In this document: positions 24,956 through 47,325 of the stretch, in pieces | Position numbering within the stretch: position 1 is the first letter of the stretch | Layout of the letters: each line of letters starts with the position of its first letter | Position numbers and translations under genes: made by a program | Virus record (IMG/VR): IMGVR_UViG_2562617057_000009 | Span: 1 to 50,378 of that record | Strand: one strand, 5' to 3' | DNA length: 50,378 nt | Source of the DNA: a virus | Lineage: Duplodnaviria; Heunggongvirae; Uroviricota; Caudoviricetes | Notes under the pieces: model-generated | Told to the model about the DNA's origin: nothing | Database searches by the model: none | Seen by the model: the letters and a program-made list of their open reading frames with translations, nothing else

Positions 24956-25231
24956 GTGGCTTCTGTTTCTATCAGCTGTCCCTCCTGTTCAGCTACTGAC
25001 GGGGTGGTGCGTAACGGCAAAAGCACCGCCGGACATCAGCGCTATCTCTGCTCTCACTGCCGTAAAACATGGCAACTGCAGTTCACTTACACCGCTTCTC
25101 AACCCGGTACGCACCAGAAAATCATTGATATGGCCATGAATGGCGTTGGATGCCGGGCAACTGCCCGCATTATGGGCGTTGGCCTCAACACGATTTTACG
25201 TCACTTAAAAAACTCAGGCCGCAGTCGGTAA
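24956..25231 (+). CDS. insA: IS1 InsA
   Basis: 91-aa protein matching recalled InsA. Confidence 0.9.
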
Positions 25232-25653
25232 CCTCGCGCATACAGCCGGGCAGTGACGTCATCGTCTGCGCGGAAATGGACGAACAGTGGGGCTATGTCG
25301 GGGCTAAATCGCGCCAGCGCTGGCTGTTTTACGCGTATGACAGTCTCCGGAAGACGGTTGTTGCGCACGTATTCGGTGAACGCACTATGGCGACGCTGGG
25401 GCGTCTTATGAGCCTGCTGTCACCCTTTGACGTGGTGATATGGATGACGGATGGCTGGCCGCTGTATGAATCCCGCCTGAAGGGAAAGCTGCACGTAATC
25501 AGCAAGCGATATACGCAGCGAATTGAGCGGCATAACCTGAATCTGAGGCAGCACCTGGCACGGCTGGGACGGAAGTCGCTGTCGTTCTCAAAATCGGTGG
25601 AGCTGCATGACAAAGTCATCGGGCATTATCTGAACATAAAACACTATCAATAA
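25150..25653 (+). CDS. insB: IS1 InsB reading frame
   Basis: 167-aa ORF matching recalled InsB. Confidence 0.85.
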
Positions 25654-25668
25654 GTTGGAGTCATTACC

Positions 25669-25951
25669 CGGTATAGCGTATGACGATCCGGGGAGCGGAA
25701 ATAACCTAGGAGGCACGCGATACACGGGTTATGGTTTTGAAGTTCGCAAAAACGGCGTATTAATCGCATCCAGAGAAACTAAAGGGGCCATTCCCGGTAG
25801 TTACAGTGCAGTTATTGATATGCCTAGTGGTGGTGGTAGCGTCACTCTGGAGTTTAAGATTTTCCAGAAAGGCAATCAGGGGGCAGGCAATATCACCGAC
25901 TGTACGGTGATTGTGACCAAAAAAGCGGCTTCCGGCATCAGTATTCGTTGA
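25669..25951 (+). pseudogene. 3' fragment of a tail protein gene (probably host-specificity protein J, by position upstream of lom)
   Basis: Open frame begins at the IS1 right end without a start codon. Confidence 0.4.
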
Positions 25952-26020
25952 AATTGTTATAACCCATATAAGGGCACCAGAAATGGTGCCTTTTTTATTG
26001 CAGAAAAGCGAGAGGTAATT

Positions 26021-26620
26021 ATGCGTAAACTTTATGCCGCCATTTTGTCCGCAGCCATTTGTCTGGCCGTATCCGGTGCGCCTGCATGGGCATCTGAACA
26101 TCAGTCCACGCTGAGCGCGGGGTATCTTCATGCCTCGACGAACGTTCCCGGCAGCGATGATCTTAACGGGATTAACGTGAAATACCGTTATGAGTTTACG
26201 GACACACTGGGGCTGGTGACGTCATTCAGCTATGCAGGAGACAAGAATCGCCAGCTTACCCGTTACAGCGATACCCGCTGGCATGAAGATTCCGTGCGTA
26301 ACCGCTGGTTCAGCGTGATGGTGGGGCCGTCTGTGCGCGTGAATGAATGGTTCAGCGCGTATGCGATGGCGGGTATGGCTTACAGCCGTGTGTCGACTTT
26401 CTCCGGGGATTATCTCCGCGTAACTGACAACAAGGGGAAAACGCACGATGTGCTGACCGGGAGTGATGACAACCGCCACAGCAACACGTCTCTGGCGTGG
26501 GGGGCTGGCGTGCAGTTTAACCCGACCGAATCCGTGGCCATTGACCTTGCTTATGAAGGTTCCGGCAGTGGCGACTGGCGCACTGACGGTTTCATCGTGG
26601 GTGTCGGTTATAAGTTCTGA
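26021..26620 (+). CDS. lom: Lom/Ail/PagC-family outer-membrane protein
   Basis: Signal peptide, beta-barrel-like alternating pattern, C-terminal ...GVGYKF. Confidence 0.8.
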
Positions 26621-26683
26621 TTAGCCAGGTAACACAGTGTTATGACAGCCCGCTGGTTCAGGCGGGCTTTTTGTGGGGTGAAT

Positions 26684-28099
26684 ATGGCAGTAAAGATTTC
26701 AGGTGTACTGAAAGATGGGGCGGGTAAACCTGTCGTAAATTGTGCGATTGAACTGCGGGCCAGAAGAACCAGTCCGACCGTTGTGGCACACGTTGTTGCC
26801 ACTTGCGTGACGGACAATAACGGTGCTTATGTGATTGAGGCTGAGCCGGGGTATTACGAGGTTGCGCTTCACTGTAACGGCTGGCAGCCAACCCGTGTCG
26901 GGGATATTGATGTGGCACCGACTGATGCACCGGGGACACTGAACGCGTTTCTGAATGCACCAAAGGATGGTGATTTACGTCCGGAGGTGATGAAGCGCTT
27001 TGAGGAAATGGTGGCGCAGGCGCAGCAGAGTGCCGGGGCTGCAGCCGGAAACGCACAGCAGACGGCGCAGGATGTGGCGCCAGCCGCAACGGCCCGTGAT
27101 GATGCACAACGTTTTGCGGAGAATGCCAGACAGGATGCAGTTGCCACTGCAGAGGACAGAAAGGCCACTGCGGAAGACGTGAAAAGCACGGGGAAAAACG
27201 CCGTCTTATCCGGTCAGCGTGCACAGGCAGCCGCAGGTTATGCCCGCGCAGCAGAACAGGCCAAAAATGACATTGATGCTGCGCTGACCGGCACTCTGAA
27301 AACGGCTAACCATCTGTCTGAAATCGCAGCAGCAGGCGAAAAGGCACAACAGAAGTCCCGGGATAATCTGGGGCTGAAAAGTGCGGCCACGATGGAAGCA
27401 CAGAGCGACATTTACGACCGGACAAAAGGCCGTCTGGCGATACCCGGCGCATTCGGCTTTGGGTGTGCTTTTCTGCCTGAAGATGTTATCCGTTTTGACA
27501 CTAAGAGTGATTTCCTGGCCTGGGTAAGGAATGCGCTGCCAGGTGAATATTCCGTTGCTGGCCCCTACGACATCATCATACCCGACACACGGTTTGAAGG
27601 GGTGCTCAGCATCCGGTGGACTGATGCACGCCCTGAGACAACAGAACCGCGGTACAGAGCCAAATCCCTTACTTTTTACGGCATTAACGGCCCCATTTAT
27701 CACACCCGCTACTGCTACTGGCCCATATCCAGACTGACTGGCTGGGTGAAAATAAATATAACCACAGAAGATATTATTTACAGAATCGTGGCGAGCTCTG
27801 TCTGCAACAGATGGGGAGACCCTGACATTGGCGGGCTGATTATTGCTGCGTACCAGGGAGAAGCTGACGGTGATAAAGTCATCAGACTTGTCAGGGGGCA
27901 GTCATACAGAGGCTCACGACTGGGACCGGTGGGGATTTCAGTGCCCAGTACTCCCACCGGAACGTATATAGCATCCCCACAATTTTTCATTACGGGATGT
28001 TCAGAGCATTCATTACCGGGGTCATATTGCGCCCTGTCCGGGGTGCCGGATGCACATGTCTCTGGCGCAATGCCCGGGCTTTTTATTCGCACATCGTGA
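26684..28099 (+). CDS. stf: side tail fiber protein (Stf-like)
   Basis: N-terminus MAVKISGVLKDGAGKPV matches recalled lambda Stf; Ala/Gln-rich shaft. Confidence 0.75.
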   Translation: MAVKISGVLKDGAGKPVVNCAIELRARRTSPTVVAHVVATCVTDNNGAYVIEAEPGYYEVALHCNGWQPTRVGDIDVAPTDAPGTLNAFLNAPKDGDLRPEVMKRFEEMVAQAQQSAGAAAGNAQQTAQDVAPAATARDDAQRFAENARQDAVATAEDRKATAEDVKSTGKNAVLSGQRAQAAAGYARAAEQAKNDIDAALTGTLKTANHLSEIAAAGEKAQQKSRDNLGLKSAATMEAQSDIYDRTKGRLAIPGAFGFGCAFLPEDVIRFDTKSDFLAWVRNALPGEYSVAGPYDIIIPDTRFEGVLSIRWTDARPETTEPRYRAKSLTFYGINGPIYHTRYCYWPISRLTGWVKINITTEDIIYRIVASSVCNRWGDPDIGGLIIAAYQGEADGDKVIRLVRGQSYRGSRLGPVGISVPSTPTGTYIASPQFFITGCSEHSLPGSYCALSGVPDAHVSGAMPGLFIRTS

Positions 28100-28109
28100 G
28101 GAATGCACC

Positions 28110-39363: not shown

Positions 39364-41635
39364 GGAAAACTCCCCAGTTTTGCAGCGATGCCAGTGCCTG
39401 CTGTTCGAGTTGTTGATGATGTGCAATGGCCTGTGGTGGACAATGCAACGGCATTTGCAGCGCCGAAACGGGAAGTTGCGCCAGTTGATAATGCTCAAGC
39501 ACCTGATGCGCCAGCGTCCCGCGTTCTCGTGGTGGTAGCCAGGCCATCGCCGCGCGTAAATCGGGCAGGGCGTTAATAAAATCGGCTTCACTCAGTTGAT
39601 TTAAATGACTGCTGAAACCGGCGATAAATGCCGGCTGACAGGCCAGTTGATGGCGGGCCAGCGCCAGCAAACCGTGCAGCGCCTCACCAGATTGTGCCGG
39701 GGATAACTGCGCCAGCATCGTCAGCGCCGCTTCGGCACTGGCGTTGGGATGTTCCAGACGCATTAGTGCGCCAAGAGCCGCGCCGCGATCCAGCGCCGGG
39801 GCATGAATTGCCTGACTGCGTCGCTCCAGTAAGGCTACCGCCGCAGAAAGAGAAACGCCGGGTAAATTAACGCCGCTATGTAGATCGCGCAGAATATGGC
39901 AAAGCGCTTGCCAGCTATGCAGGTGAGCGTGAAACTCCTTTTCATCCGGTCTGCCGTTAGATTCACACAGCCACAGCGTGCGATAGATAGTCGCGCATAA
40001 CGTCGTTTGTAATATCTGCGCGCCTTGCATACCGCTAATTTCATCCAGCCGCCATAAGGCATAAAGCACTTCCAGCGCCTGGCCCATTTCGGCAAATTGA
40101 TTTTCCTGGGCGATTAATAGTGTGAGTTGCTCCAGTAATTGTTGACTGAAGGACGCCAGACCCGCTAACGCCGCCTGGCTAAGACATGTGGTGATACTGC
40201 CGATTCCGCCCGCGTCCAGCATATCGGCTTCTAATTTATTGCGTGCGGCTTCCTGGAGTGTGGCACCAAAACAGGCGGCCTCAATCAATGCCGCATGCTG
40301 GCTAAGCGGGCGGGTTAATTTCCAGCGTTCTTCACCGTTGCCTGCAAGTGTCAGTGTACTTCCCTGCTGGCGTACAATCCCAGGGATCTCCAGTATTGCC
40401 AGCCGATGTAACACCTGACTTTGCGCCAGCCCATCGGGGGTAAAGCGATTTAAGGTAAGCTCCGCCGGAAGGGAGATTGCGGTACGTTCCAGTTCGCAGG
40501 TGACATCTTTTGGCAGAGGCGGTTGTGGCGTAGAAGGGGCAAGTTTACCGAATCCGTCACCCGCTAATGTGTCTATCAACGTTAGCAGAATCGGATCGGT
40601 ATCGGGATGAATAACGCCGCGATAGCTCCACGGCAACGGCGCGTTCAGGGCTTCTTTAATCAGCGAGCCTGCTATGGCATCCAGCCAGTCAGTGCGTAAC
40701 GGTAGTGTATGACCGCGCAACTGTGCCAGCGCCATCGCATGCAGATGAGCGGCAGCCATATCCGCGGTAGAAGCGGGCAATTTGTGCTGGCGCAAACGGG
40801 TAAGGATAGTTTTTAGCAGTTGTTCACCGGCCTTCTGCAAGCCCCACTGCCAGCACCAGTTTTGCCATACCGGGGCAGGCATTCCTGAAAGGTATCCTGC
40901 CAGCACATCAAGGCGCTTTTCACTGTAGGGTGTGAGATAACAACCTGTAACGGCATCTGCCAGCGAGGGCAATTCTGGCTTGTTAATTTTCTGAGGGCAT
41001 TCGCGCCACATCTTTGCCAGTGCCGGAGCGTGCCAGCCACCGCAGACAACTAACACGTCGCCATTATTTTGCTGCATCGCCCATCCAATCCAGCGGGCCA
41101 TAAAGGCTTCGCGCTGACGATTGAGCGCATCGCCGGAGGCGTCGCCCCGCAGTTGGGCAAAATAGTGCGCCAGCGCAGAGGGTAATGCAGTTTGCTGGCT
41201 TTCATCTTCGAACAAGTGATCCCACAGGGTATCGCTGTTATCCATGCGGGTGGCACGCAGCAGTAAGGCCTGGCTTTCATCTTGCGTATCAGGCGAATCG
41301 TCCTCTTCTTCACTCTGCGCCCAGCAAGGCAAATCGATGAAGTAAGTTTGTGCCTGAATGCGACGTGCGGCTTGTAGCGCCTGCCACTCCGGCGAAAATT
41401 CAGCAAATGGCGTCCAGGCACCACGCCCGGGGGCTGCACCGTCCTGATACTGGCAATAACTGTAAATAGCTACCGGAAGCTGGTGGGCTAAAAACAGTTC
41501 GTCTACCCGGTCATTAAAATCAGCCGGGCCTTCAATCAACACGTATCGTGGCCGCTGGCTTTCGATTAACGATTTCACCAGCCGGGCGCAGGCCGGACTA
41601 TGATGCCGGATGCCGACAATTAACGGCTCGCTCAT
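39356..41635 (-). CDS. yehM: YehM
   Basis: 759 aa from MSEPLIVGIRHH; length matches recalled YehM. Confidence 0.7.
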   Translation of the reverse strand: MSEPLIVGIRHHSPACARLVKSLIESQRPRYVLIEGPADFNDRVDELFLAHQLPVAIYSYCQYQDGAAPGRGAWTPFAEFSPEWQALQAARRIQAQTYFIDLPCWAQSEEEDDSPDTQDESQALLLRATRMDNSDTLWDHLFEDESQQTALPSALAHYFAQLRGDASGDALNRQREAFMARWIGWAMQQNNGDVLVVCGGWHAPALAKMWRECPQKINKPELPSLADAVTGCYLTPYSEKRLDVLAGYLSGMPAPVWQNWCWQWGLQKAGEQLLKTILTRLRQHKLPASTADMAAAHLHAMALAQLRGHTLPLRTDWLDAIAGSLIKEALNAPLPWSYRGVIHPDTDPILLTLIDTLAGDGFGKLAPSTPQPPLPKDVTCELERTAISLPAELTLNRFTPDGLAQSQVLHRLAILEIPGIVRQQGSTLTLAGNGEERWKLTRPLSQHAALIEAACFGATLQEAARNKLEADMLDAGGIGSITTCLSQAALAGLASFSQQLLEQLTLLIAQENQFAEMGQALEVLYALWRLDEISGMQGAQILQTTLCATIYRTLWLCESNGRPDEKEFHAHLHSWQALCHILRDLHSGVNLPGVSLSAAVALLERRSQAIHAPALDRGAALGALMRLEHPNASAEAALTMLAQLSPAQSGEALHGLLALARHQLACQPAFIAGFSSHLNQLSEADFINALPDLRAAMAWLPPRERGTLAHQVLEHYQLAQLPVSALQMPLHCPPQAIAHHQQLEQQALASLQNWGVFHV

Positions 41636-41645
41636 GCATCTTTCC

Positions 41646-42402
41646 TCACGGCAGGCGGTGGCGGGCTTGATAATAAGCCTGCCAGTGAGCTTCTTTATGT
41701 GTGGCGACACGCTGTTCGAAGTAACGGCGCAGACGCGCGCGATCTTCTTCGTTATCTTTGACGATGGTTCCGGCAATACATTCCACCAGGTCGGCAGGCT
41801 CCCCCGCGCGATTCGCTAAAAACCAGGCGCGGACGCCCACAGCATGGGCCACGTTCACGGCTTCAGCGGTGGACATAATCGCTGTCAGTGTATCCATTGA
41901 CGTTTTCTTTTCGCCGTTGGCACGCAGATCGCGGAAGGTGCGGACCAGTAATTCCAGTACCGCGTCAGGCACTTTATGCGGAATACCGCTATGGGCCAGC
42001 AAACGCGCCGAAGCACTGGCGACCAGTTCCAACTCCTGGGCGAAATCCATAATCGGAAAAACCGTTTCAAAATCGAAGCGACGCTTTAGCGCAGCACTCA
42101 TTTCATTGACGCCGCGATCGCGGGTATTGGCAGTGGCAATAATATTAAAGCCTTCTCGCGCATAGAGCTGACTGGCTTCACCAGTGAGTTCCGGCACCGT
42201 CATCACCCTGTCAGAAAGCATACCTAACAGACAGTCCTGCACTTCCAGCGGTGTACGCGTTATCTCTTCGAAACGGACGATTTTGCCGTCGCGCATTCCC
42301 TGATAAAGCGGGGCAGGGACCAGCGCTTCCGTTGACGGACCATGATTGATAAGCAGGGCGTAGTTCCAGCCATACTTGATTTGATCTTCGGTGGTAGATG
42401 CC
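41646..42402 (-). pseudogene. yehL: YehL (MoxR-type AAA ATPase), 5'-truncated by IS186
   Basis: Open frame continues upstream of the listed ORF to the IS186 end at 42403; roughly 110 N-terminal codons missing. Confidence 0.6.
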
Positions 42403-43741
42403 CATAAGCGCTAACTTAAGGGTTGAACCATCTGAAGAATGCGACGCCTCGGTGCCTCGTTAAGACGATGCCTCGCGTTCTTCAATTGCGTTTTGTAGGC
42501 TGTCAGGGATACTGTCCCACGAATGGCCACCTGTAAGCTCCAGATGACCATTTTTGTTATTCTCCACAACGAGTTAGTTCTTCTTTTCGGATCCGGCACT
42601 TCTGGGGGGGAAATCCAGCGATGGCTGGATTATGTCGTCAATTAAAAATGCGGCGAGTAGATTAGCAAATATCCACGCTTTCGCGAGTTCAGGTTCCTTT
42701 GCACGCAAAGCATCCAGGTGCAGCAAACTTTTGAGCCGCTTAAAAGCCAGTTCAATTTGCCATCGCAGACGGTAACAATCAGCCACTTGCTCTGCTGAAT
42801 ATTCATCTTCCGGTAATGATGTTAGCAATAGCACATGGCCCGCTGCTTCCAGCGTTTCCGCCTGAACTACTCGTCCTTTTCGACGATTCTCGCTGAGCAG
42901 TCGGGTTTTACTGATTAATGCTTTTTCGGGAGGAAGTGATACGGCAATGAGACGTGCCGGAAAGGGAGCTCCGGCTTTTTTATTACCTGAATTGCCTATC
43001 ATTACAGTGGTTTCACCGTTCTTACCGCAATCCAGCCCGCGCAGAAAACCCATCATGTCAAAGCGCATTCCTTCTGCAGTTAACCAGCGCAATCCTCGCC
43101 AGTGAACCCGGACGATATAATCAGCTTCTCCAAAAGCAAGTGAGCGGATACATTCGGGACGCGAACCGAATCCCCGGTCAGCAATGCGTATCTCGTCTGC
43201 CGTTTGCGCAAATCGGTCCAGCCGTTCAGCGTCTCTGCTGTCGGTTAGCTCAAAATCAGTGAACTGACAGGTATGAGGATCATATCCCATATGTAGTCGC
43301 CATTCAGCGCTGCCGCCCCCGGGCGCACTGATTGCTGTTCCATCGACAAGACGCAATCTCTTTCCGCTTGTACAACCCGTAACTGCGGCGCGTACAGCAA
43401 GTGTTTGTGCGGCAAGTATGCCAAACCAGTCGGCGGCATTCCGCAGCCGCTTCAGGAGAGCCACGTCAGATAATGTTGCAACGTCATGGAGCTGAGCCCA
43501 TGCAGTGACTTCACGTAATGACATCCCCCCGGGGCCGTAAGCCAGCCCCAGACGTAGCAGAGTTGCAGCATCACGAATTTCGCGGCGGCGGGTTAGAGCC
43601 CCGGCATTACGTGCCGAAGTATCCAGTTCTTCGGGCTTACCAATATGGGCCAGAATTGCTGACCAGTTATCGTGAGAGTAATTCATCGGCACGTTAAATC
43701 ATATCAGGCGTAATACCACAACCCTTAAGTTAGCGCTTATG
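42403..43741 (-). mobile_element. IS186 (IS4 family, ~1339 bp)
   Basis: Terminal inverted repeats CATAAGCGCTAACTTAAGGGTTG at both ends; transposase matches recalled IS186; flanks differ on the two sides. Confidence 0.8.
42574..43692 (-). CDS. IS186 transposase
   Basis: 372-aa ORF filling the element. Confidence 0.8.
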   Translation of the reverse strand: MPMNYSHDNWSAILAHIGKPEELDTSARNAGALTRRREIRDAATLLRLGLAYGPGGMSLREVTAWAQLHDVATLSDVALLKRLRNAADWFGILAAQTLAVRAAVTGCTSGKRLRLVDGTAISAPGGGSAEWRLHMGYDPHTCQFTDFELTDSRDAERLDRFAQTADEIRIADRGFGSRPECIRSLAFGEADYIVRVHWRGLRWLTAEGMRFDMMGFLRGLDCGKNGETTVMIGNSGNKKAGAPFPARLIAVSLPPEKALISKTRLLSENRRKGRVVQAETLEAAGHVLLLTSLPEDEYSAEQVADCYRLRWQIELAFKRLKSLLHLDALRAKEPELAKAWIFANLLAAFLIDDIIQPSLDFPPRSAGSEKKN

Positions 43742-44058
43742 GGGAATTTTCCCCGCACACGCCGGAGAACTGGATCACCACGCACAACGGCATTGAGTAC
43801 ACGGCACCAGCACCAGGGGAGAACATCCGCGACAACGCTCCAAACTTTCATAAATGGCTTGATCACGCTGCCGGAAAAGATCCGGGCAAGATGATGCGTA
43901 TATGCGCCGCGCTATACATGATTATGGCGAACCGGTACGACTGGCAGATGTTTATTGAGGCCACCGGAGACGGCGGGAGCGGCAAGAGCACTTTCACGCA
44001 CATAGCCAGCCTTCTGGCAGGGAAACAGAACACAGTAAGGCAGTATGACTTTCCGTGA
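43742..44058 (+). pseudogene. internal fragment of a P4-type primase/helicase gene (Walker A GDGGSGKS)
   Basis: Frame reads ...YDWQMFIEATGDGGSGKSTFTHIASLLAGKQN...; no start codon; begins at the IS186 end. Confidence 0.6.
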
Positions 44059-44059
44059 G

Positions 44060-45565
44060 ACAGATGCTGGCCAACGTGGGATATTTAACGCGGGTTAACA
44101 TCGTTGTCAGAGCCGCATGGGTGAGCTGTTGCTACACCCCGGTATTTCCACCACGGAGGCCAGCATGAACAACAATAACACATTGTACGTCGGGTTAGAT
44201 GTTCACAAAGAATCGATTACTGTCGCTTATGCTATCAATTCAGAACCTGTTGAACTGATGGGTAAAATTGGCACATCACCTACTGATATTCAGAATCTTT
44301 GTAAACGTCTCAGGTCAAAGTCATCGCAGGTCAGTATCGTTTATGAAGCGGGGCCCTGTGGTTATGGACTTTATCGTCGGCTGGTGAAATCCGGTTTTGA
44401 CTGCATGGTCTGCGCCCCCTCACTTATCCCGAAAAAACCGGGGGAGCGGGTTAAAACCGATCGCCGTGATGCCATCAGACTTGTGCGTTCACTGCGTGCA
44501 GGAGATCTTTCTGCTGTCTACGTACCCGGCATTGAAGATGAGGCATTCCGGGATTTGGCCCGGGCATGGGCATCTGCCCGCGATGATTTACGGCATGCAA
44601 GGCAACGTCTGAAATCGTTTCTTCTGGTTCATGGGGTCCATTATGTCGGGCGAGCAGATTGGGGCCCTGCACACCGACGCTGGCTCAGCAAATACTCATT
44701 CGAAAGTCCCTGGCGACAATTAGCTTTTGACGAACACCGTCGTACAATAGAAGACCGGCAGGCACAATGTGAACGGCTGGAATCCGCCCTGAAGGAGGCC
44801 GTTACCGAATGGAGGCTGTATCCGGTAGTAGAGGCGCTGCAAGCCATGCGAGGGATTCAGTTTATTACTGCGGTTGGATTAATTTCTGAACTGGGTGATC
44901 TGACCCGTTTTGAACATCCACGACAACTGATGTCATGGTTTGGTATCACGCCATCAGAATATTCATCGGGTGGAAGCAGACATCAGGGCAGCATTACCAA
45001 AGCCGGAAACAGCTATGCCAGAAAGCTATTGGTCGAGGCAGCGTGGAGTTACCGTCATCCGGCACGCATCAGTCCGGCAATACAAAAAAGGCAGGAAAAT
45101 TTACCCCGCCCCGTCATTGACAGAGCATGGGATGCTCAACTCAGGCTTTGTAAGAGGTATCGAAAACTTCAGGCCAAAGGAAAGAATGTCAATATTACAA
45201 TTGTTGCTGTTGCACGTGAGCTGGCGGGTTTTATCTGGGATATGGGCCGAATAGCAATGTCTGTCGCACAACAACCACAATGTCACAAATAAAAAATGAG
45301 AATAACCAGTTCCCTGAAGGCGACGTAGCCCGGTACAAGAGTAACCCACGTTAGCGCTTGGCGACGGCGGAACAAAGCTGATTCGCGACGTAAGAAAGTG
45401 GCAGGCTCATATGACGGACCTCTGTAATGCGGTATCCAACCCGCGAATATCAGCGTGATTCACCGTCGGATTTACTGCTACGTCGCCCTCAGGGAATTAA
45501 ACCTAAAAAGAAAATCGTCAAAATTAGAGATTCCGGTTTGACACGGAAAGTCATATCAGCGCTGA
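44060..45565 (+). mobile_element. IS110-family insertion sequence (boundaries approximate) inserted in the primase gene
   Basis: Transposase with DEDD-type N-terminus (LYVGLDVHKESITVA); primase coding sequence resumes at 45567. Confidence 0.55.
44165..45292 (+). CDS. IS110-family transposase
   Basis: Start MNNNNTLYVGLDVHK; ~375 aa. Confidence 0.7.
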   Translation: MNNNNTLYVGLDVHKESITVAYAINSEPVELMGKIGTSPTDIQNLCKRLRSKSSQVSIVYEAGPCGYGLYRRLVKSGFDCMVCAPSLIPKKPGERVKTDRRDAIRLVRSLRAGDLSAVYVPGIEDEAFRDLARAWASARDDLRHARQRLKSFLLVHGVHYVGRADWGPAHRRWLSKYSFESPWRQLAFDEHRRTIEDRQAQCERLESALKEAVTEWRLYPVVEALQAMRGIQFITAVGLISELGDLTRFEHPRQLMSWFGITPSEYSSGGSRHQGSITKAGNSYARKLLVEAAWSYRHPARISPAIQKRQENLPRPVIDRAWDAQLRLCKRYRKLQAKGKNVNITIVAVARELAGFIWDMGRIAMSVAQQPQCHK

Positions 45566-45566
45566 G

Positions 45567-46292
45567 ATGACATCGCTTGATGATGCTGGTGGGCGTGCAC
45601 AGGTTGTCGGGAGTCGTCTTATCGTCCTGGCAGACCAGCCGAAATATACAGGCGAAGGAACGGGCATCAAGAAAATCACGGGCGGCGACCCCGTGGAAAT
45701 TAACCCGAAATATGAAAAGCGTTTTACGGCGGTAATCAGGGCGGTGGTGCTGGCAACCAATAACAATCCGATGATATTCACCGAACGGGCCGGAGGCGTG
45801 GCACGTCGTCGCGTGATTTTCCGTTTCGACAATATCGTCAACGAGGCCGAAAAAGACAGGGAACTACCGGAAAAGATTGCGGCTGAAATCCCCGTCATTA
45901 TCCGCCGATTACTGGCGAACTTTGCAGACCCTGAAAAGGCGCGGGCTTTACTACTGGAACAGCGTGACGGTGATGAAGCACTGGCGATAAAGCAGCAAAC
46001 GGATCCGGTTATTGAGTTTTGCCAGTTCCTGAATTTTCTGGAGGAAGCACGTGGCCTGATGATGGGTGGCGGTGGCGATTCCGTGAAGTACACGACCAGA
46101 AACAGCCTTTACCGCGTCTATCTGGCGTTTATGGCATACGCAGGCAGAACCAAACCACTAAACGTAAATGACTTTGGCAAGGCCATGAAGCCAGCCGCAA
46201 AAGTTTACGGACATGAATATATTACGCGAAAAATTAATGGAGTGACGCAGACTAACGCAATAACAACCGACGATTGCGACGCGTTTTTATAA
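45567..46292 (+). pseudogene. 3' part of the P4-type primase/helicase gene
   Basis: Continues the primase C-terminal region (LIVLADQPKYTGEGTGIKKITGGDPVEINPK...). Confidence 0.65.
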
Positions 46293-46299
46293 TTTTTGG

Positions 46300-46545
46300 C
46301 AATTGCTGTCTACCTTGTCTACCTGATTACATAAAAGTTGTTTTAATTCAGTGTATTAATTTAGGTAGACAGCTTTTTTTTACTGTCTACAAGCTGTCTA
46401 CCTTGTCTACCTGTTTTTGTAGCCAGTCGGAGGGATGGGTAGACATCAGGTAGACAGAGATTTTTTACTGTCTACCACCATAAAACCCGCGTCATTACTG
46501 GCCTGAGCATCCACCAGGTAGATAAGGTAGACAAGGTGGGGGTAT
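46300..46545. repeat. iteron array: at least 11 copies of GGTAGACA / TGTCTACC in both orientations (putative satellite ori)
   Basis: Directly downstream of the primase gene; includes palindromes around T-runs. Confidence 0.6.
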
Positions 46546-46582
46546 CTCCAAAACTTTTTAAACGAGGGGGGTAAAAACAAAA

Positions 46583-46840
46583 ATGCACACATCAGGAAAA
46601 CTTAACAATCAGAAGAAGCAACATAACCGCGCCATTGACCTTACAGAGCACTGGCTGAGGGTGGCGATAAAAATCATCGACCGCAACGCGGGAGAAGGAT
46701 ACGCGAAAGCACATCCTGAACTGATAAGCGCATTCATGACCACGGCGGCAGCAAACTTTGCCACGCTGACAGAACGGGAGATTGCCGAAGCGGAACAGGT
46801 GACAACCATCAACGTTAAAACCGGAGAGCAGACAGCATGA
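46583..46840 (+). CDS. hypothetical protein
   Basis: 85-aa ORF upstream of and overlapping the SSB start. Confidence 0.45.
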   Translation: MHTSGKLNNQKKQHNRAIDLTEHWLRVAIKIIDRNAGEGYAKAHPELISAFMTTAAANFATLTEREIAEAEQVTTINVKTGEQTA

Positions 46841-47259
46841 CAGCACAGATAGCAGCTTACGGGCGGCTGGTGGCTGACCCGCAGTTAAAGACCACCAGCA
46901 AAGGGACACAAATGGCGATGGCGAGTATGGCGGTTCCCCTGCCGTGCAGCCAGGCCGATGACGGAACGGCGACGATGTGGTTATCCGTCCTGGCGTTTGG
47001 CAGACAGGCCGAAGCACTGGCAAAGCACCGCAAGGGTGAACCCCTGAGCGTGGCGGGTAACATGCAGGTGAGCCAGTGGACCGGACAGAACGGGGAAATG
47101 CGGCAGGGCTGGCAGGTTATCGCAGACAGCGTAATCAGTGCGAGAACGGCGCGACCGGGCGGCAAAAAAGGCCAACAGGGGCAGGCTGCTGATGCACTGA
47201 GCAGAGCAAAACAACAGGCGGGAAATGATGATCCGTACGGGGATAACATACCGTTTTAA
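46837..47259 (+). CDS. ssb: single-stranded DNA-binding protein (SSB-like)
   Basis: OB-fold-like N-terminus, Gly/Gln-rich tail ending DDPYGDNIPF (SSB acidic tip). Confidence 0.7.
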   Translation: MTAQIAAYGRLVADPQLKTTSKGTQMAMASMAVPLPCSQADDGTATMWLSVLAFGRQAEALAKHRKGEPLSVAGNMQVSQWTGQNGEMRQGWQVIADSVISARTARPGGKKGQQGQAADALSRAKQQAGNDDPYGDNIPF

Positions 47260-47272
47260 GCAACGAGTAACA

Positions 47273-47297
47273 GAAGCCGGAGCAATCCGGCTTTTTT
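47273..47297 (+). terminator. intrinsic terminator
   Basis: Hairpin gccggagcaatccggc plus TTTTTTAT. Confidence 0.7.
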
Positions 47298-47325
47298 ATG
47301 GGTCCTCCCGGTGTAGTGACCTGCC

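Follow-up and report, generated by a model that had tools for sequence, protein, structure and literature searches.

An iteron array behind a disrupted P4-alpha-type primase gene is very probably the replication origin of an EcCICFT073-type PICI

Introduction

PICI origins share a common anatomy, in which 6-12 short iterons follow directly 3' of rep and opposed iterons flank an AT-rich centre (PMC9371898; PMC6092414). The Rep proteins of SaPIs are hexameric, self-loading SF3 helicases that need neither ATP nor accessory loaders to bind and melt the origin, and their C-terminal winged-helix domain recognises iterons of 5-6 nt, which are located past the rep ORF on both sides of the AT-rich centre (PMC9371898). 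For the island EcCICFT073, a plasmid carrying pri-ori was kept at the restrictive temperature, whereas pri-Δori and Δpri-ori plasmids were lost (Fillol-Salom et al. 2018, PMC6092414).

P4 needs two sites for replication, ori and crr, which lie ~4.5 kb apart. The crr (the 'cis required region for replication' of the P4 record) is located directly 3' of the alpha gene and is made up of two direct repeats of 120 bp, both of which hold five octamers ('ori type 1 repeat') in the two orientations, at a tandem spacing of 9 bp. Binding of alpha to these type 1 iterons was reportedly described by Ziegelin et al. in 1993 and by Yeo et al. in 2002. It is also remarked upon in PMC6092414 and noted in the GenBank annotation of P4.

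We compare these systems here with an iteron array in a stretch of DNA of 50,378 bp, the whole of which is referred to as the window.

Layout of the iteron array

Exact octamers of the type GGTAGACA/TGTCTACC occur nine times, all of them at 46307-46533 (227 bp), and the rest of the 50,378-bp window contains none. Dinucleotide-preserving shuffles of the window (n=100) gave a chance expectation of 0.78 octamers for its whole length (sd 0.85, maximum 3), and none of the 100 reached nine. Two more octamers in the array deviate by one mismatch (TGTAGACA at 46384 on the - strand and GGTAGATA at 46517 on the + strand), while one-mismatch matches outside the array are at background level for the whole window. 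The resulting 11 sites agree with the preliminary description, which had reported at least 11 octamers in both orientations; it had also assigned them to a dense array of ~250 bp at 46300-46545, of which the density is real and the extent slightly tighter. The conserved unit is the hexamer GGTAGA followed by two more variable bases, and the consensus in the window is AGGTAGACAg. The first iteron is found 15 bp past the stop codon (46290-46292) of an ORF for a P4-alpha-family primase-helicase. The array is composed as follows.

46307(-), 46316(-), 46364(+), 46395(-), 46404(-), 46438(+), 46449(+), 46469(-), 46526(+): starts of the nine exact octamers
46307..46323, - strand: iterons 1-2 (TGTCTACC twice, 9-bp spacing), bordering the AT-rich spacer on the left; invariant in their core columns across 15 sequences
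46324..46363, no strand: AT-rich spacer (82% A+T), candidate DNA-unwinding element from composition and nearest-neighbour stability
46364..46391, no strand: iteron 3 (+, GGTAGACA) and iteron 4 (-, degenerate, TGTCTACA), an inverted pair around T8
46395..46411, - strand: iterons 5-6 (TGTCTACC twice, 9-bp spacing), start of the second ~88-bp direct repeat (D3)
46438..46456, + strand: iterons 7-8 (GGTAGACA twice, 11-bp spacing), from octamer scan and alignment
46469..46476, - strand: iteron 9 (TGTCTACC), inverted partner of iteron 8 around T6 (D2, I20)
46477..46516, no strand: second 40-bp spacer (47% A+T), a conserved non-iteron block (aAAaCCcGCGtCATTACTGg in the window), from the 15-sequence alignment
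46517..46533, + strand: iterons 10-11 (GGTAGATA and GGTAGACA, 9-bp spacing), mirror image of iterons 1-2 (I1)

The 11 sites are oriented - - + - - - + + - + +, with centre-to-centre spacings of 9, 46, 22, 11, 9, 32, 11, 22, 46 and 9 bp, so that the layout is nearly mirror-symmetric. Tandem neighbours stand 9-11 bp apart, which is about one helical turn, and inverted neighbours 22 bp, which is about two. According to a repeat finder, the array is built from two direct repeats that are ~86-88 bp apart and hold 4-5 octamers each, with the repeat families D3 (46305-46328 and 46393-46416, 24 nt, 96% identity, spacing 88) and D2 (46363-46390 and 46448-46475, 89% identity). The terminal pair at 46515-46533 is an inverted image of 46307-46325 (inverted repeat I1, 19 nt, 95% complementary). 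Palindromes around T-runs had been pointed out before and are real: AGGTAGACAGC-T8-ACTGTCTAC at 46363-46390 and AGGTAGACAGAGA-T6-ACTGTCTACC at 46448-46476 represent the two D2 copies.

The AT-rich spacer occupies the left 46-bp interval of the array, between oppositely oriented sites (iterons 1-2 on the - strand, iteron 3 on the + strand), and the 40-mer from 46325 is less stable than 99.97% of the 40-mers in the window, as judged by nearest-neighbour energies. This spacer lies off the centre of the mirror symmetry, and its mirror partner at 46477-46516 is GC-richer and conserved in sequence. A simple model in which iterons flank a melting site does not explain this second, conserved spacer.

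Motif scans of 46251-46620 detected no DnaA box (up to one mismatch), no IHF consensus and no GATC, which fits a self-loading initiator and differs from a plasmid iteron origin of the RepA type with DnaA assistance. A terminator scan of 46100-46900 gave nothing above shuffle background, an Rfam scan of 45800-47300 assigned no family and returned sub-threshold chance matches only (AfaR with 26 bits against a cut-off of 100), and a search of the phage collection produced no match.

The disrupted initiator gene

The array had been described as lying downstream of the primase, which holds for its position, but the ORF in question (45567-46292) is a C-terminal fragment of a disrupted gene. The fragments were delimited by tblastn with the intact 582-aa primase of the closest intact island, L001, as query.

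42403..43741, - strand: IS186/IS421-type element of the IS4 family, with terminal inverted repeats CATAAGCGCTAACTTAAGGGTT and a transposase ORF at 42574-43692
43741..44037, + strand: primase-helicase fragment, residues 240-338 of 582 aa (tblastn with the intact L001 primase, 97% identity)
about 44040..45557, + strand: IS110-family element (ISSso6-like) inserted into the primase gene within its SF3 helicase region, seen as a gap between blastn/tblastn segments
45546..46292, + strand: C-terminal primase-helicase fragment, residues 335-582 and stop (tblastn; Pfam DUF5906, Pox_D5)
46583-46840, + strand: ORF for a hypothetical protein of 85 aa
46837-47259, + strand: SSB (Pfam SSB, E=7e-15)

The IS186/IS421 element, a 99.9% match to an element annotated as IS421 in E. 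coli VL40, cuts yehL at 42403 and joins the yehL fragment to primase codon 240, with removal of primase codons 1-239 and of the island to the left of them. The IS110-like element contains a transposase ORF at 44117-45292, which is annotated as an ISSso6-family transposase in VL40, and the same broken primase arrangement is present in that strain. Because the gene is disrupted by IS elements, the ATG at 45567 is an internal methionine and not a start codon, and the 'primase' ORF 45567-46292 is a pseudogene fragment. With residues 1-239 lost and the remainder split by the IS110-like element, the origin cannot fire from the resident gene; its own sequence is preserved in cis, but it is orphaned and probably inactive in the window.

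The junction of the IS186/IS421 element with the primase fragment is located at 43741-43755 of the window (L002 3845), where the IS abuts GGGGAATTTTCCCC. This sequence resembles the G-run/C-run target favoured by IS186. In E. coli VL40, the IS is found at the same junction with its body inverted and with fiu instead of yehL on the other flank, and a single IS-IS recombination does not account for this difference from the window.

The intact primase comprises the Pfam domains D5_N, DUF5906 (SF3) and Pox_D5, and it matches the cryo-EM structure of SaPI5 PriRep (7OLA, E=3e-15) as well as the structure of the C-terminal domain of P4 alpha (1KA8, E=1e-6). The winged-helix origin-binding domain is retained in the window as residues 145-233 of ORF 45567-46292 (match to PDB 1KA8, E=2e-6). 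Residues 141-571 of the PICI protein align with residues 326-756 of P4 alpha at 41% identity over 432 aligned residues (E=4e-112). The likeness begins only at residue 141: the N-terminal ~140 residues (L001 7295-7714; absent from the window) have no Pfam match and are unlike the primase domain of P4 alpha (1-325), which makes the PICI protein a putative primase.

Genomic surroundings

Related islands in E. coli, of which single genomes carry up to six related places each, typically show the order int, HTH/AlpA, icd, DUF4222, primase (582-584 aa), a gap of ~290 bp, 85-aa ORF and SSB, and intact relatives have their integrase and att sites ~5 kb from the array. In the window, int, an alpA-type regulator and att sites are missing, and IS186 and yehL stand in place of the island's left part; the window thus holds the remnant of a decayed PICI-type island. 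The 85-aa ORF and the SSB gene, which follow in the same order in the E. coli relatives, probably belong to the replication module. They are succeeded in the window by genes for a lambda-E-like major capsid protein and a lambda-D-like decoration protein, and the morphogenesis genes beyond SSB vary among the related E. coli islands.

At the right end, terS of L001 (12666-13208) has no counterpart at 49802-50091 of the window, and the likeness resumes at 50091 with the last hypothetical gene. The ORF 50079-50378 was considered as a small terminase and rejected, as it matches this last hypothetical gene of L001 instead. Positions 1-25000 of the window represent a prophage (integrase, Rha regulator, replicative helicase, large terminase) that is best matched by enteroinvasive E. 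coli, and the yeh/btsS chromosomal region follows at 25001-43700, where matching genomes add a gene for an ipaH-type effector and one for a prophage tail fibre. The backbone of the window resembles genomes of enteroinvasive E. coli or Shigella.

Orthology to the EcCICFT073 origin

EcCICFT073 (AE014075 1377749-1389210; PMC6092414 supplement) has the same gene order, with DUF4222, primase, the ~290-bp gap, the 85-aa ORF and SSB. Its gap between primase and next ORF aligns column by column with 46293-46582 of the window at 72% identity; all 11 cores match in position and orientation, and the AT-rich spacer is likewise flanked by iterons. When mapped, the published Δori reverse primer reaches as far as the stop codon of the primase (L009 6980-7000), and the published ori reverse primer is placed where the next ORF begins (about L009 7287-7307; the supplement text deviates by one base). 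The published 'ori' is therefore exactly the iteron-filled gap. A primase-dependent origin or copy-control region had been suspected at this place from the start, and the array indeed is orthologous to the EcCICFT073 region whose loss abolished replication (PMC6092414). Differences between the two loci concern the iterons, which are more uniform in the window (nine exact GGTAGACA versus five GGTAGACA-type cores with CA at positions 7-8 in CFT073), and the state of the island: EcCICFT073 is a tested replicon, whereas initiator and left island half have been destroyed by IS elements in the window.

Conservation across relatives

An alignment of 15 sequences from four genera (Escherichia, Rosenbergiella, Xenorhabdus and Symbiopectobacterium) separates the iterons clearly from their surroundings: 49 of 66 GGTAGA-core columns are invariant (mean conservation 0.97), as opposed to 18 of 204 other columns (0.63; Mann-Whitney p=3e-26). 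The preliminary description had made its reading depend on conservation of the repeats in related islands, and the cores stand at the same positions in E. coli and three other genera. Among the E. coli relatives, the gap is 57-73% identical to the window, whereas the primase gene reaches 91-95% over its last 726 nt. Identity drops sharply at the stop codon: the spacers change much more quickly than the neighbouring gene, by evolution in place or by exchange. The region cannot be coding, since its spacers contain single-base indels.

A scan with one genome per species retrieved 14 loci with a primase C-terminus of 57-97% identity from Shigella, Rosenbergiella, Pantoea, Xenorhabdus, Symbiopectobacterium and Providencia. 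Repeats with the GGTAGA core follow directly past the primase stop in 13 of them, the exception being Providencia, where the protein match itself ends early. Positions 7-8 of the iterons differ between lineages, with CA in the window, CA or TA in CFT073, GG in O157-type islands, TA in Xenorhabdus and Pantoea and GA in Symbiopectobacterium, and also inside single arrays. The genes past the array are different again, ranging from lambda E/D-like genes to full head modules of the HK97 type, ClpP-capsid fusions and ProQ/FinO; in Rosenbergiella the array is directly followed by SSB, in Pantoea and Xenorhabdus by unrelated genes. While these downstream genes vary, the array stays behind the primase, which indicates that it travels with the primase and not with them.

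The two spacers are conserved in different ways. The first retains its AT-richness in the relatives, with a sequence that is free to vary, and the second contains AAA.CC, which is invariant in the 15 sequences of four genera, and GCGCCATTACTG, which is conserved within E. coli. The block past iteron 9 reads ATAAAACCC in the window and CTGAAAGCC in most E. coli relatives, and is followed by GCG(T/C)CATTACTG in E. coli. A conserved hairpin in this spacer was considered and dismissed as a general feature: TTACTGGC-N6-GCCAGTAA is present in some E. coli alleles and, in the alignment inspected by eye, absent from the window, from other E. coli alleles and from Xenorhabdus. A second conserved non-iteron block, AAAACTTTTTAAAC, is situated past the last iteron pair at 46552-46565 of the window.

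Some relatives carry half-arrays. In the first 250 bp past the stop, two Pantoea stewartii loci (L013, L014) have the first six iterons and the AT-rich spacer only, and two Xenorhabdus loci (L016, L024) lack the AT-rich part and have kept the second half. These natural half-arrays suggest that the array is modular, and not every part of it may be needed for initiation.

E. coli islands with iterons that end in GG (GGTAGAGG; L005, L007, L008) encode A201 and S204 in the origin-binding domain (numbering of ORF 45567-46292), and those with GGTAGACA or TA-ending iterons N201 and G204. Residues 201 and 204 are possible specificity determinants, a suggestion drawn from three related sequences, and iteron positions 7-8 also vary within single arrays.

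Discussion

The array is very probably the replication origin (ori) of a PICI of the EcCICFT073 type, with functional evidence contributed by its ortholog of 72% identity. It is placed directly 3' of the initiator gene, its iterons are short and within the range of about 6-12, opposed sets of them flank an AT-rich region, and the orthologous ori has been validated. Type, position and function of this origin are already known since 2018 from the orthologous island, and the assignment has little weight as a discovery. The analysis adds that the recognition core is GGTAGA, which is conserved at fixed positions in at least four enterobacterial genera. The map of 11 sites, together with the candidate melting spacer and the conserved spacer, could serve as a resource for dissecting helicase loading, and for annotation purposes the copy in the window should be flagged as a decayed island with a pseudogene 'primase' ORF.

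From homology with the described initiators and from the anatomy of the array, we infer that the P4-alpha-like primase-helicase would bind the GGTAGA(C/T)A iterons via its C-terminal winged-helix domain. The opposed sites on either side of 46324-46363 may position the SF3 helicase, which would load itself there, probably as two rings given the near mirror symmetry of the 11-site layout. The spacer at 46324-46363 would then melt, the protein or the host would prime, and a host polymerase could copy the island in its excised form with no need of DnaA. The contacts between domains and bases, the point of first melting and the loading of a double ring are thus predictions from the layout and from homology.

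Similarity to P4 is extensive. In both systems the initiator belongs to the P4 alpha family and carries an origin-binding domain at its C-terminus (1KA8), and the array resembles crr in its position 3' of an alpha homologue, its direct-repeat form and its type of iteron, although the DNA does not align. The P4 iteron GGTGAACA and GGTAGACA of the window are identical at 6/8 positions, or at 8/10 when flanks are included (RGGTGAACAG in P4, AGGTAGACAG in the window); in the opposite orientation, the type 1 octamer bound by alpha, TGTTCACC, differs from TGTCTACC with 6/8 positions identical. The PICI replication module and P4 alpha/crr are accordingly homologous in protein, site sequence and site position, which bears on the question whether P4 and Gram-negative PICIs are independent lineages. 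The comparison with P4 ori/crr that had been proposed is upheld for the initiator and for position and form of crr, but not for the arrangement in two sites, since the PICIs have one cluster (window, intact L001 and L009). P4 furthermore has a terminator between alpha and crr, and the window has none. The array works like P4 ori/crr and is evolutionarily related to it, but with its single cluster it belongs among the PICI origins and does not form an ori/crr pair.

SaPI origins also combine iterons 3' of rep, an AT-rich centre with at least two opposed iterons on each side and an initiator with SF3 and winged-helix domains. They show no DNA similarity to the window, which has 11 sites with a motif of 6-8 nt, GGTAGA(CA), and is distinguished from them by its two ~88-bp direct repeats and its overall mirror symmetry. 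In the origins of SV40 (large T antigen) and papillomaviruses (E1), short inverted sites lie by an AT-rich tract and an SF3 helicase is assembled on double-stranded DNA. These origins have no sequence relationship with the array, and the likeness would be a mechanistic one.

Iterons may serve purposes other than initiation, and the handcuffing iterons of plasmids are a model for copy-control elements. Copy control of this kind, or a cis-enhancer function, could be the main role of the array or at any rate of its second half (46393-46533), which would then titrate or loop the initiator and not be the site of DNA opening; this reading and that of an origin are compatible. P4 crr, with its 120-bp direct repeats of five octamers each, is found in the same place directly 3' of alpha, the array of the window likewise consists of two direct repeats (~86-88 bp, 4-5 octamers each), and the half-arrays of Pantoea (first half) and some Xenorhabdus (second half) suggest two modules. 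We nevertheless consider a mainly regulatory role rather unlikely: PICI relatives show one iteron cluster and nothing else that resembles an ori, so that initiation should take place here if anywhere, the least stable 40-mer of the neighbourhood lies inside the region, and the EcCICFT073 replicon no longer replicated once just this region had been deleted (PMC6092414).

The same deletion argues against iterons that function as operators of a transcription regulator or of an autoregulating primase and control the downstream operon of hypothetical, SSB and capsid genes, because the Δori phenotype is a replication phenotype (PMC6092414). An operator function would agree with the way in which the array fills the intergenic region, with the last iteron pair ~50 bp from the next start codon, and with the conserved block past this pair. 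It would not be expected of an array that follows the primase whatever lies downstream, be it SSB, unrelated genes or different morphogenesis modules; no sigma-70-like promoter was found on the + strand of 46100-46900 (one weak site on the - strand is at shuffle level), and transcription of Gram-negative PICIs is described as unidirectional, coming from upstream (PMC6092414). We regard this explanation as very improbable. Two IS elements within 3 kb might finally suggest that the repeats arose by chance or are degenerate, for instance as what is left of a mobile-element end or as a cluster of att/arm-type sites, and have no role in replication. We give this almost no credence, as none of the 100 shuffles attained the observed count, islands free of IS elements from four genera keep both the cores and their positions, the integrase and att sites of intact relatives lie some 5 kb off and Rfam yielded no match.

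The origin in the window, orphaned as it is, could be served in trans when a related island or an incoming satellite supplies a compatible primase-helicase, and it might then fire or titrate the incoming initiator as a decoy. We think this unlikely. If true, in-situ firing would amplify neighbouring chromosomal DNA, and decoy titration would result in incompatibility or interference between satellites. A hint of in-situ firing in nature may be contained in a 32.5-kb 'circular plasmid' record of E. coli (pD17EC0246-3, CP088587.1; L025), in which the island is accompanied by chromosomal flanks; the record is either an assembly artefact or the trace of in-situ over-replication from an array-type origin. 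It includes a complete related island from int to terminase, with HK97-type capsid, protease, portal, TerS and TerL, and the array is located at about L025 14777-15064. The chromosomal flanks extend for about 8-10 kb on each side (~8 kb and ~9.6 kb) and carry pntAB and ydgH on one side and mdtJI, asr, mlc and clcB on the other.
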